From NCBI RefSeq assembly GCF_037042905.1, contig NC_087251.1, forward strand, positions 7,814,001 to 7,874,000: a DNA stretch of 60,000 nt, read 5' to 3'. This document shows positions 9,401-12,400 of the stretch, in pieces; the first letter of the stretch is position 1, and the number at the start of each line of letters is the position of its first letter. A program made the translations under genes and the position numbers. The stretch is from Lytechinus pictus. Its lineage: Eukaryota. The notes beneath the pieces are model-generated. The model saw only the letters and a list, made by a program, of their open reading frames with translations. It ran no database searches and was not told where the DNA came from.

Positions 9401-12400
9401 AGAATATTTCATACCAGTATAATGTATTCGTATAAATGTGGCTTTGTGTTACTGTGCCAGAAATTTAGTCAGTATATTTTTTAAGAATATTTCATGAAAA
9501 GAAGTTTGTATTTGGGCAATTTTACATGGTCTATAAAATTCTTTTTGAAGTCTGTGTACCTACTTTGTACCTGGCCCTCACTTTTTACCATTACACCTTT
9601 CGAAAGTATGTATGTTCTCTCATGATATTGTAGTATTTAACCATGGTAACATAATTACCAGAAAATTGAGCCATTTTCTCGGAGCAATATTATTCTCTTA
9701 TAAAAACAAACGGTGAACAAAAATAACATACAACATTGTTTACAATATGAAACCTACAGCAGTTGTTTAAACGATTTAAACAAGTGTTTGATTTGATTAT
9801 TTATTTACCAAAAATATTCACATGTTTACAGGTTATGAAACAAATTGCGTAACAGTTACACATACATGTATATTTAAAAAAAAAGGTAAATGGGCCAGAA
9901 ACTAGCACAGGTGTTAGTCGAGCCTGGCCTCACAAACATTACAAAACGCACATTTAAGAAGGATAAGAAATAAATTCGAATATACTCCTTGTAAAGGGTT
10001 ATCATTAACATTAAAAAAAAGTATCTTAATTGCAATAATCATATACTGTAGACTTACATGTTTGGTGGTGTGAAATTATGAAAACAACTTTTTAGAGAAT
10101 TCCTAAAATCTTTTATTGATTTCTTCAATTTTATTTCAACTGGTACTCTATTCCAGAAATCGCTACCTCGAAAAGAAAGTGAAAATTGTCCTTGAGTTGT
10201 TTTTACTCTTGGAAGATTTACTTGTTGGCCTTTCTTCTGTCTAGTAGGATAACTGTGCTCAATTAGGTTACAATAATCTACTAAGGAGTGAGGTAGGTTA
10301 TTATTACGTAGATCATACATGAAGGTACATATAGATTATGCACATCATTAAATAAACAGCGATAATGAGCTAGCCAACGACTAAAGGTAATTGCACGCAC
10401 TGCCATCAAACTTTTTGGGAAAGATATCTAAAATCTCAAACATCAAACTTTAATCTTTAATATTCAATTCTCAATAAATTAAGCATAGTTATTTAAATTG
10501 TTATACAACTACTACAAGGTTCATAGAGTAAAAAGCGTTTTACGGTTTATTAATAACAATAGATGTCTTTTAGCCTACTCGAATAAATTGGTATCCTACA
10601 GTAAAGGCACCTTTAGGACCAGAAATCAATGGGAAAGCGGTTTAACTAAATTGTCTTACCTGGCCAAACAATAGCTCTTGAATTCCATTCTAATACATCT
10701 CCCGCCGTGTCATAAAGTCCTAATCTTTGCTCGAGAAATTCTGACAGATGAAGAGTAAGAAAATTAACAGGAAAATGTAAAGTTATGAGAAACAATACGA
10801 ATTATTAAAATAGTGATCCACAACTGATAATAACATTTTATGCAAATTCATGATTATAGTATACAAGGACATGTTTTGCGATTGACTATGAGATATTTTT
10901 TTTTAAATCACCTTCTGTAAAAGACGCCATTCGCGTTATTGGCACACTTAAATCACAATATGAACTTGGATTGCCCTTGCATTTTACGGTGAAATCATGT
11001 ATGAATCGGGGACGTTTTGGCTTGATTTAATAATCAACACGAAGTGTGTACAATCAATTATTGTCGCCAATTATTTTACTTCACTAAGCAGACAGGGGTC
11101 AAAAATAGCTAAGCAACGACTGTGCTGTGTTTTACCCCGGCTGTTCTCCCATTCCCTGACATGTCACAATCTTATATTACTTTAGATAAATTATGGTAGA
11201 ATTGTCAAGTAGCTTACTAGTGGATTCTGAGCAAATGTACGGGTACATCTCATCGCAGTCTACGATGACGATATTGCTGTTCTCTTCACTTGGATTGAGA
11301 TCAATGACCGCACAGCCACTCGATGATGATGATGACCACGGGCTTAGAGATTCTGTAAAAGCTTCTAATTCGGACTGATTCAAGGAGCCGCTTACATCGC
11401 TAAACTGACCATTAGCATCAACAAAGAGACCTATGTACCTGCATGTGTGAAATCAAACAACTATCACTGTATTTTGTTTTTAATGACCATTCCCTAATCC
11501 TCCTCCTCCTACTACTACTACTACTACTACTACTACTACTACTACTACTACTACTACTACTACTACTTCTACTACTACTACTACTACTACTACTACTACT
11601 ACTACTACTGCTACTTCTACCACCACTACTACTACTACTACTATTACTACTACTACTTTTACTACTACTACTACTGCTGCTACTACTACTACTACTACTA
11701 CTGTTACTTTTGACCGATTTTCGCTGATTTTTTTTTATGGAGGAAACTTATCTTGTCTATAGCATTCAACTGCCGATAAAGGCCACAATCTATGTTTCTG
11801 TTGGATGATCACTATACACAAGTCTCACTGGAGTCGAATAATCGTGTGCCAATTGGTGTCTCTTGGTGTCTAGTTTTACAAACTAGTACCATGTGGACAT
11901 GTTTCTTTTTTTTTACACAAATAAGATCCCAGCCCCCTTCCCTCGGTTTCCTATGCTTAAAAAGTTCAAAATGATCAATGAAATATACAACGTTCAACCC
12001 ATATTTTCCTATGCAACTGCGTTACCCATCAATATAATTCTTCAAGTATCGATCAAGGACATCGTACCATCTGGTGGTCGTCACACCCTCTTCCAAAACG
12101 ACGTCGAACAGGTCCTCCACGGCGTCCAATGATGGGGTAAACAAGGTTCGATCACCAGCAAGACTGCATGTCGAGCTGGCCAATGACCACGTCTTCTTGT
12201 CAGTGTTCAATGTCAGACAAGTAGAGTCAATCTGAATGTGGTTACTCTTGCAGCCCACTGAAATCGAAATTAACAAATTTAGGCTCATTAGGATATCCAT
12301 TGGCGGATCGGGGGGGGGGGGCAAAGCAGACCCGAGCCCCCCTTTTGAGAGGCACAATTAAAATTTGTGATGTAAAAATGCCATTGAAAAGAAGTGAGCC

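Follow-up and report, generated by a model that had tools for sequence, protein, structure and literature searches.

A GABA-B-type receptor gene interrupted by a lectin-like module

The stretch analysed here, called the window below, comprises 60,000 nucleotides of the sea urchin Lytechinus pictus (contig NC_087251.1, positions 7,814,001 to 7,874,000), and all coordinates are given relative to its first base. [quoted passage not shown] Two exons of this gene, 9 and 10, encode a C-type lectin-like domain (CTLD) placed within the ligand-binding Venus flytrap domain (flytrap hereafter). This arrangement had been proposed in a preliminary description, made from the letters alone.

Exons were placed by tblastn of the proteins P0007 and P0003 against the window, and the coding sequence was assembled by script, under the conditions that every intron be bounded by GT/AG (or GC/AG) and that the translation equal the L. 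pictus protein exactly. The 1172-codon model was rebuilt in this way, with 19 coding exons and 3519 nt of coding sequence including the stop. The gene is L. pictus LOC129265045, as judged from the exact protein match, and the models of LOC129265045 equal the window exons.

Receptor coding region, exons 1 to 10, minus strand (tblastn and splice script): 41303-40893, 29784-29647, 27763-27593, 23276-23175, 20834-20769, 19898-19701, 16914-16645, 12833-12773, 12257-12068, 11438-11218
Receptor coding region, exons 11 to 19, minus strand (tblastn and splice script): 10740-10660, 9042-8874, 8218-8086, 7551-7441, 7054-6932, 6208-6062, 5648-5460, 4205-4023, 3447-2893

The part of the gene that concerns the insert is organised as follows.

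12773..12833, minus strand: exon 8, the final flytrap strand before the insert (..GITQIEQLQ), phase 1 out, followed by GT; RNA joint 12257/12773
12068..12257, minus strand: exon 9, 190 nt, AG before and GT after, phase 1 in and 2 out; RNA joints on both sides
11439..12067, minus strand: CTLD-internal intron, phase 2; RNA depth 0 throughout
11218..11438, minus strand: exon 10, 221 nt, phase 2 in and 1 out; RNA joints
10660..10740, minus strand: exon 11, the returning strand of the flytrap hairpin ((K)FLEQRLGLYD..), then the first part of the stalk linker

The three introns split the codons TTG (L), TGG (W) and AAA (K), giving phases 1-2-1. Coordinates, lengths and phases of exons 8 to 11 were exactly those of the preliminary description, as was the 1172-residue product; in both models the flytrap resumes with exon 11. 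The product of the insert is 138 residues long and has six cysteines. Exon 9 supplies the N-terminal half of the domain (C0, C0', C1 and two helices, up to the W of WYIGL), and exon 10 the C-terminal half (YIGL.., a serine-rich loop, C2, C3 and C4). All the motifs announced earlier (C-x10-C, W-x2-A-x3-C, W|YIGL across the intron, CAVI, DC and YPYIC) are present in the translation. Exon 10 has a single match in the L. pictus genome; it also matches XP_041469544.1 of Lytechinus variegatus (90% identity). The insert is present in all nine isoform models checked in the two Lytechinus species, the isoforms differing elsewhere.

Two arguments of the preliminary description stand in part. It stated that the flanking flytrap segments are contiguous in vertebrate GB1; contiguity was found for human GB2, Drosophila GB1 and Haliotis GB1, the proteins on which it was checked in place of human GB1. 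Its exon-shuffling argument from phase 1-1 flanks fits the L. pictus gene, the one genome in which phases were examined.

Exons 9 and 10 are transcribed and spliced into the receptor message

Two raw stranded RNA-seq runs labelled with this species (X19 and X20) were mapped on positions 10600-12900, with joints listed from three reads upward. The joint between exons 8 and 9 (12257/12773) was covered by 18 reads in X19 and 32 in X20, the joint between exons 9 and 10 (11438/12068, reported as 11434/12064 with a 4-base ambiguity) by 23 and 38, and that between exons 10 and 11 (10740/11218) by 27 and 20. The three junctions that the preliminary description had singled out for inspection in RNA are all spliced, with 18-38 reads each, and the junction reads all have one strand orientation. 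RNA depth was 28-57 over exons 9 and 10 versus 19-36 over exons 8 and 11, and fell to 0 in the introns, except at a high-copy repeat in intron 8. Assembled RNA agreed: a 781-nt contig (run X15, record 7) covers exons 8 to 11, another covers exons 10 and 11, and the fraction of sampled words present in the contig runs X1-X4 and X15-X18 was 0.23-0.25, the same as the exonic fraction of the stretch sampled (553 of 2221 bases). The contigs of X1 and X15, once aligned, proved to be spliced.

No joint skipping exon 9, exon 10 or both was listed in X19 or X20 at the three-read threshold; transcripts always devoid of the two exons, the case named beforehand as contrary to the proposal, were not seen. 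A TAA stop arises where exon 8 meets exon 11 and a TGA stop where exon 9 meets exon 11, and the frame is shifted if exon 10 follows exon 8. Therefore a full-length protein cannot be made after skipping. Exons 9 and 10 are constitutive coding exons in the two RNA runs.

In X19, an rRNA-depleted library, three reads run from the exon 11 end backwards to where exon 8 begins (12832/10659, back 2174). They would fit a 553-nt circular RNA of exons 8 to 11, both CTLD exons included. X20 contained no such read, and template switching is an alternative source.

The insert is a long-form six-cysteine C-type lectin-like domain

Searched alone, the insert matched the Pfam family Lectin_C (PF00059) with 26.3 bits, versus a cut-off of 22.6 (E 1.3e-05, profile positions 2-106 of 107). 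Exon 10 by itself reached 18.9 bits (E 0.0026), and exon 9 by itself matched only a poxvirus CTLD family (E 0.046). A hidden Markov model (HMM) of the domain, built from the clade described below and including exon 9's own sequence, matched the exon 9 frame with E 2e-13. The core motif WYIGL is present, spread over the two exons. In the Protein Atlas, residues 475-612 fell near Lectin_C clusters with scores of 0.85-0.86, below the 0.9 hit level, which is a lead only.

Relatives with the same insert gave clearer matches. When 16 of them were scanned whole, Lectin_C reached its cut-off in 11 (with as much as 55.5 bits), fell short of it in three and was unlisted in two, with scores of 42-55 bits in the Ptychodera and Holothuria members; it was absent from two insert-less brittle-star relatives scanned whole. 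Six cysteines and W538 are invariant in alignment A1, and the six cysteines with the core tryptophan occur in 18 of 19 insert-bearing aligned sequences. The sole exception is an old fragment model (P0025) with five cysteines, whose cluster mate P0173 scores 37.2 bits against Lectin_C.

The AlphaFold2 (AF2) model of the full-length protein has a mean predicted local distance difference test score (pLDDT) of 78.3, with 71-93 in the insert. There it places strands at 482-484, 487-496, 537-544, 550-552, 579-584, 594-597 and 603-610 and helices at 498-507 and 518-531, plus an extra helix at 559-568. The resulting order of elements, E-E-H-H-E-E-H-E-E-E, fits a CTLD. Among the 50 matches listed by Foldseek for the whole model against the viral predicted structures of BFVD, eight had C-type lectin or lectin-like names, each over 134-154 columns, the best being a canarypox protein (E 1.1e-05, root-mean-square deviation 3.1 A). 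Because this alignment length fits the insert, these matches presumably fall on it; the output itself carries no model range. In a search of PDB structures with the full model, all 50 matches listed were to flytraps or whole receptors, a result that does not bear on the CTLD.

Exons 9 and 10 thus encode a long-form six-cysteine CTLD, and the identity first proposed from the letters is upheld by the Lectin_C match of the segment and the cysteine and tryptophan skeleton, with which the predicted order of elements agrees. None of the motifs EPN, QPD, WND, EPS and EPD occurs in the 138-residue translation, so that the absence of EPN/QPD and WND noted at the outset holds. By-eye inspection found none of the five in the inserts of relatives either.

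The domain sits at a hairpin turn of the flytrap

When P0003 was aligned to human GB2 by phmmer, the match was split in two, residues 105-474 corresponding to chain positions 74-432 and residues 615-1009 to positions 436-820. About 140 residues therefore stand in place of three, at the turn that joins the final pair of long flytrap strands, and the product of exon 11 aligns to human GB2 directly after the insert. In the AF2 model the hairpin strands run through the junctions (467-476 into the insert, then 603-610 and 612-622 out of it), and pLDDT is 92-95 on both sides. The CTLD is nested in the flytrap, as the preliminary description had it, and the continuity of the strands together with the confident junctions suggests a rigid mount.

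Between the hairpin and the flytrap C-terminus there are 20-35 residues. In the passages available to us, the Drosophila cryo-electron microscopy (cryo-EM) paper measures the distance between flytrap C-termini when it describes the rearrangement of lobe 2 (LB2). Given this, the nearness of the hairpin to the C-terminus and general class C topology, the hairpin probably belongs to lobe 2. According to review passages, the approach of lobe 2 to that of the partner is the trigger of GABA-B activation.

The receptor is an intact GABA-B-type GPCR with an altered ligand pocket

The full-length protein matched the Pfam families 7tm_3, ANF_receptor and Peripla_BP_6, and no cysteine-rich-domain family (NCD3G) was found in the same scan. 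AF2 strands 654-659, 808-813 and 825-835 fit the linker strand and the long hairpin of extracellular loop 2 (ECL2) that make up the GABA-B stalk as a review defines it in the passages available. A C-terminal helix (978-1005) aligns to the coiled-coil region of GB2. Apart from the insert, the receptor is an intact GABA-B-type class C GPCR, with flytrap, stalk, seven-transmembrane (7TM) domain and C-terminal helix.

The pocket residues of GB1 were mapped through Haliotis GB1, aligned to the Drosophila GB1 chain with the numbering of the Drosophila paper reproduced. Seven residues of GB1 contact GABA according to the parts available of two papers, namely W65, S130, S153, H170, E349, Y250 and W278. 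Their equivalents in the urchin receptor are as follows.

W65: kept
S130: kept
Y250: kept
W278: kept
S153: Ala (Ser with exon 3a)
H170: Tyr
E349: Leu

Judging by this comparison, the carboxylate-holding residues and the aromatic lid appear to be retained in the pocket. His170 and Glu349 are those which we take to hold the amino end of the ligand; since their equivalents are replaced, GABA is probably not the small ligand of this receptor. With these losses the name "GABA-B receptor" designates the fold and not the ligand.

One segment of the pocket is encoded twice.

28182..28352, minus strand: exon 3a (alternative), 171 nt, AG/GT flanks, found by tblastn; used in L. pictus model P0014
27593..27763, minus strand: exon 3b, 171 nt, AG/GT flanks; the copy in the 1172-codon model

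The two are tandem duplicates with 65% protein identity, both in phase 0, and encode the flytrap segment with the equivalents of GB1 G151, S153 and H170. Isoforms in the databases carry 3a, 3b, both or neither. The exons look like a mutually exclusive pair that would exchange a pocket residue, Ser in 3a and Ala in 3b.

After the coiled-coil helix, the last exon (3447-2893; about residues 1011-1027 of P0003) encodes the cysteine-rich motif C-G-x-W-x-C-G-L-x-C-G-C, where pLDDT is below 50. It is kept in urchin, sea-star and sea-cucumber members, with G1014, W1016, G1019 and C1022 invariant, and a relative outside the clade (P0031) has a similar one. It may be a site of palmitoylation or metal binding.

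The insert characterises an ambulacrarian receptor subfamily

A profile search of 1.84 billion representatives yielded 18,674 matches. The best 150 of these were examined; the 149 with a length of at least 500 residues were aligned to the profile, and 11 of the 149 carry a six-cysteine insert at the same turn. Five more rows with long "inserts" were rejected as visibly misaligned flytrap or 7TM sequence. After three cluster look-ups, every named carrier was ambulacrarian: four other sea urchins, three sea stars, two sea cucumbers and the hemichordate Ptychodera flava. The sea-urchin carriers include Lytechinus, Diadema and S. purpuratus (a fragmentary model, 80% identity), and the sea stars are Patiria miniata (two proteins), Acanthaster and Asterias, whose proteins were obtained, with that of Apostichopus, in a search by region. 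The sea cucumbers, Apostichopus and Holothuria, have at least three paralogue groups with the insert in each. The same insert occurs at the same position in independent genomes of about ten species. The architecture search suggested in the preliminary description has accordingly led to further echinoderms and to a hemichordate. Since the insert is common to several ambulacrarian groups, it is a trait of the subfamily and not an oddity of sea urchins.

Two trees, both unrooted, were built on alignment columns without the insert. FastTree, run on 145 rows after 13 misaligned or very long representatives had been dropped, gave a carrier clade of 24 rows with Shimodaira-Hasegawa (SH)-like support of 95, and a quick IQ-TREE run (LG+G4, 53 hand-picked rows) a carrier split of 18 rows with an SH-like approximate likelihood ratio test (SH-aLRT) value of 99. 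In both, all carriers and the insert-less proteins of the brittle star Amphiura filiformis fall into one clade, which lies apart from the one row bearing the name GB1 (Haliotis) and the one bearing the name GB2 (Microplitis). The receptors form a subfamily that is neither GB1 nor GB2 and, among named sequences, is exclusively ambulacrarian. The simplest reading is that the insert was gained once, before echinoderms and hemichordates separated, and then lost once, in the brittle-star line, in an order that unrooted trees leave unproven.

Other GABA-B-like loci of L. pictus were compared as well. The clade CTLD HMM was run on 12 stretches (101,604 bases, chosen by hand, the one on C17 by guess) from five such loci and gave no indication of a CTLD in them, the best match having an E of 1.2. 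A search of the L. pictus genome with P0020 returned other GABA-B-like loci and no match of the CTLD part, even in the present gene, and is therefore uninformative on paralogues. One GABA-B-like locus appeared twice with identical scores, at C34:513838-530322 (a 573-kb contig) and at C6:28466481-28479877 (a chromosome-scale contig), and this duplicate is probably an unplaced haplotig.

The lectin-like domain evolves faster than the receptor that carries it

Identities were compared by domain for two pairs of species.

Sea urchin versus sea star: CTLD 22%, flytrap 67%, 7TM 55%
Acanthaster versus Patiria: CTLD 62%, flytrap 89%, 7TM 90%

Between classes the identity of the CTLD is 21-32%, and only the cysteine and tryptophan skeleton is invariant. 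Such a fast turnover fits a lineage-specific partner.

Possible roles of the nested domain

The architecture is real, expressed and ancient. As to its function, the preliminary description had proposed a module that might couple adhesion, matrix or microbial recognition to G-protein signalling and that would more likely bind protein than sugar; this stays a hypothesis. We lean slightly towards a CTLD that would serve as an accessory, Ca-independent, non-sugar binding module, the orphan GABA-B-like class C GPCR carrying it rigidly on its lobe 2. The receptor would signal as a class C dimer, and its flytrap would bind a small ligand, probably not GABA. The CTLD would bind a protein or another non-sugar partner, which might be a co-receptor, the adjacent protomer or a component of the matrix, and this binding would position the receptor or bias the lobe-2 movement that drives GABA-B-type activation. 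It would thus act in the manner of the sushi domains of GB1a, adding partner binding while the orthosteric site lies elsewhere.

Several observations weigh against this proposal, and chief among them, as regards an essential role, are the brittle-star loss and the fast rate. The insert is absent from all five brittle-star members of the clade (Amphiura filiformis), which implies that the receptor core can work without the CTLD. The fast rate can be explained by relaxed constraint as well as by co-evolution with a partner, and the read polymorphisms in exons 9 and 10 (four synonymous, two non-synonymous) are too few to show selection. The Lectin_C match of the urchin insert is modest: of the families that the preliminary description expected in the full-length protein, 7tm_3 and ANF_receptor were found, whereas Lectin_C, above its cut-off on the insert alone, was not listed in the full-length scan beside these two and Peripla_BP_6. 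The urchin domain is also the most degenerate of the family, lacking the G-W found after the first cysteine in other members and having a serine-rich loop, with pLDDT of 71-79 in places. Finally, the hairpin is placed on lobe 2 by topology and by its nearness to the flytrap C-terminus, and the CTLD may face the dimer interface, the membrane or the solvent.

The same facts can be read in other ways. The CTLD might be a brace without external ligand, which, through CTLD-CTLD contacts or contacts with the stalk or ECL2, would set the resting distance of the lobes 2 and the basal activity. CTLDs of natural killer (NK)-type receptors commonly dimerise, and the urchin domain, free of sugar motifs, would be mounted by confident junctions on lobe 2 near the flytrap C-terminus, that is, on the part whose approach is the activation step of GABA-B receptors in the review passages cited above. 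A brace should have a conserved contact surface, yet conservation between classes is limited to the skeleton residues, and brittle-star members do without the domain entirely; we regard a brace as possible, if on the unlikely side. A largely neutral passenger, left by the ancient shuffling of an exon module, would account for an insert that changes at a much higher rate than the remaining protein, that is degenerate and low-scoring in the urchin, and that Amphiura lost while keeping the gene. It would have been retained because its termini fit the hairpin turn harmlessly and because skipping breaks the frame, yielding TAA or TGA. Against such drift stand the six cysteines and the tryptophan, kept in 18 of 19 sequences across urchins, sea stars, sea cucumbers and a hemichordate, the presence of the insert in every holothurian paralogue group after duplication, the Lectin_C scores of the Ptychodera and Holothuria members, and four synonymous changes among the six polymorphisms. 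A passenger therefore seems improbable to us.

Less probable still is a true lectin, sensing glycans of microbes, food or conspecific surfaces and relaying them to a G-protein pathway. The insert does belong to the C-type lectin superfamily, and echinoderm immunity uses many CTLD proteins, but the five motifs looked for are missing from the urchin insert and, by eye, from those of the relatives. The sequence evidence disfavours such a glycan sensor, and does not separate a brace or a passenger from the accessory binding module that we prefer. An artefact (a nested other gene, rare cryptic exons or mis-assembly) could be suspected from the NCBI models of L. pictus at this locus, some of which are wrong elsewhere, being fused or N-terminally truncated. 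However, reads link exons 8, 9, 10 and 11 in two runs, contigs span exons 8 to 11 and 10 to 11, the nine Lytechinus isoform models all carry the insert, and independent genomes of about ten species have it in the same place. We give an artefact hardly any credence.

If the CTLD does influence the movement of lobe 2, it would be a natural, built-in allosteric handle on class C activation, of relevance to receptor mechanism and to the engineering of flytrap-based biosensors. A bolder extension of the accessory-module proposal, speculative and in our view unlikely, is that of a class C GPCR with two inputs, in which a carboxylate ligand in the cleft and a macromolecular cue on the CTLD would jointly set the geometry of lobe 2. 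If so, the receptor would be an ambulacrarian chemosensor reading a soluble signal only alongside a surface, matrix or conspecific partner, possibly in settlement, spawning or feeding. The macromolecular input would then be diversified by the CTLD, with its fast evolution, and by the holothurian paralogues, and the small-molecule input by the mutually exclusive exons 3a and 3b.

Comparison with known receptors

GB1 and GB2 (human and Drosophila structures 4MR7, 6WIV, 9JR0 and others) likewise consist of flytrap, stalk and 7TM domain, with no cysteine-rich domain; the C-terminal helix of the urchin protein aligns to a coiled-coil region in GB2, and of the seven residues with which GB1 contacts GABA, the urchin receptor shares four. 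They differ in having a three-residue turn where the urchin protein has its 138-residue CTLD, in the clades they form, to neither of which the urchin receptor belongs, and in His170 and Glu349, replaced by Tyr and Leu. GB1a also bears an extracellular interaction module on a GABA-B-type flytrap, apart from the orthosteric site: its sushi domains, which bind partners. These are N-terminal, attached by a linker and specific to an isoform, whereas the urchin CTLD is nested in the fold, seemingly rigid, and constitutive in two runs. To our knowledge, the extra modules of class C GPCRs stand before or after the flytrap.

Drosophila GB3 is, like the urchin receptor, a GABA-B-type paralogue outside GB1 and GB2, and its function is unknown according to the passages available of the cryo-EM paper. 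For orphan invertebrate GABA-B-like subunits no CTLD is reported. Adhesion (class B2) GPCRs also combine a domain of a lectin superfamily with a 7TM receptor, but they belong to another class, and their modules form a tandem N-terminal array before GPS/GAIN and are not within a ligand-binding domain. Venus kinase receptors, as described in the parts seen of their literature, are likewise invertebrate chimeras built with a class C-type flytrap, there fused to a tyrosine kinase and with no insertion within the flytrap.

The portion available of a 2014 table of GPCR domain combinations gives only Sushi and ANF_receptor for GABA_B, enters Lectin_C under a class B group, and has Gal_Lectin for latrophilin-like receptors. 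Neither full-text searches nor the accessible parts of PMC7042368, PMC2680970, PMC8687355 and PMC7308585 yielded any account of a class C or GABA-B receptor with a lectin domain, nor any report of a folded domain nested inside a class C flytrap; the 2006 sea urchin genome companion papers in subscription journals lay outside these searches and may contain an earlier mention. The proteins are already public as "uncharacterized" or "GABA-B subunit-like" predictions, and a precomputed Pfam list includes PF00059 for two of them, so that the architecture is visible to anyone browsing domains. The contribution made here is the recognition and delimitation of the family; the sequences themselves are not new. 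What emerges is a conserved orphan receptor family older than the echinoderm-hemichordate split, and one of its members belongs to a species that serves in genetics today, L. pictus, which makes experiments feasible.

Other features of the window

Upstream of the receptor lies a second gene, and intron 7 of the receptor gene contains an open frame.

54085-52823, minus strand: sphingomyelinase C-like gene (Exo_endo_phos), single exon, upstream of the receptor
16124-15510, minus strand: 204-residue open frame in intron 7, whose translation looks by eye like a piece of a retrotransposon reverse transcriptase

Three L. pictus RefSeq models fuse the sphingomyelinase-like gene to the receptor and skip the true first exon (41303-40893), and two older L. 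pictus models begin within exon 2. In L. variegatus the sphingomyelinase-like gene and the receptor are annotated as separate genes. The fusion is probably an annotation error.

Two repeats flank exon 9. Intron 8 contains, at 12294-12524, a high-copy repeat with long G and C runs, whose words reach depths of hundreds to thousands in the contigs and which is covered by RNA reads on both strands, many with loose ends. The intron that splits the CTLD carries, at about 11500-11730, a trinucleotide microsatellite of about 230 nt, of (GTA)n/AGT type on the minus strand and with a few interruptions.

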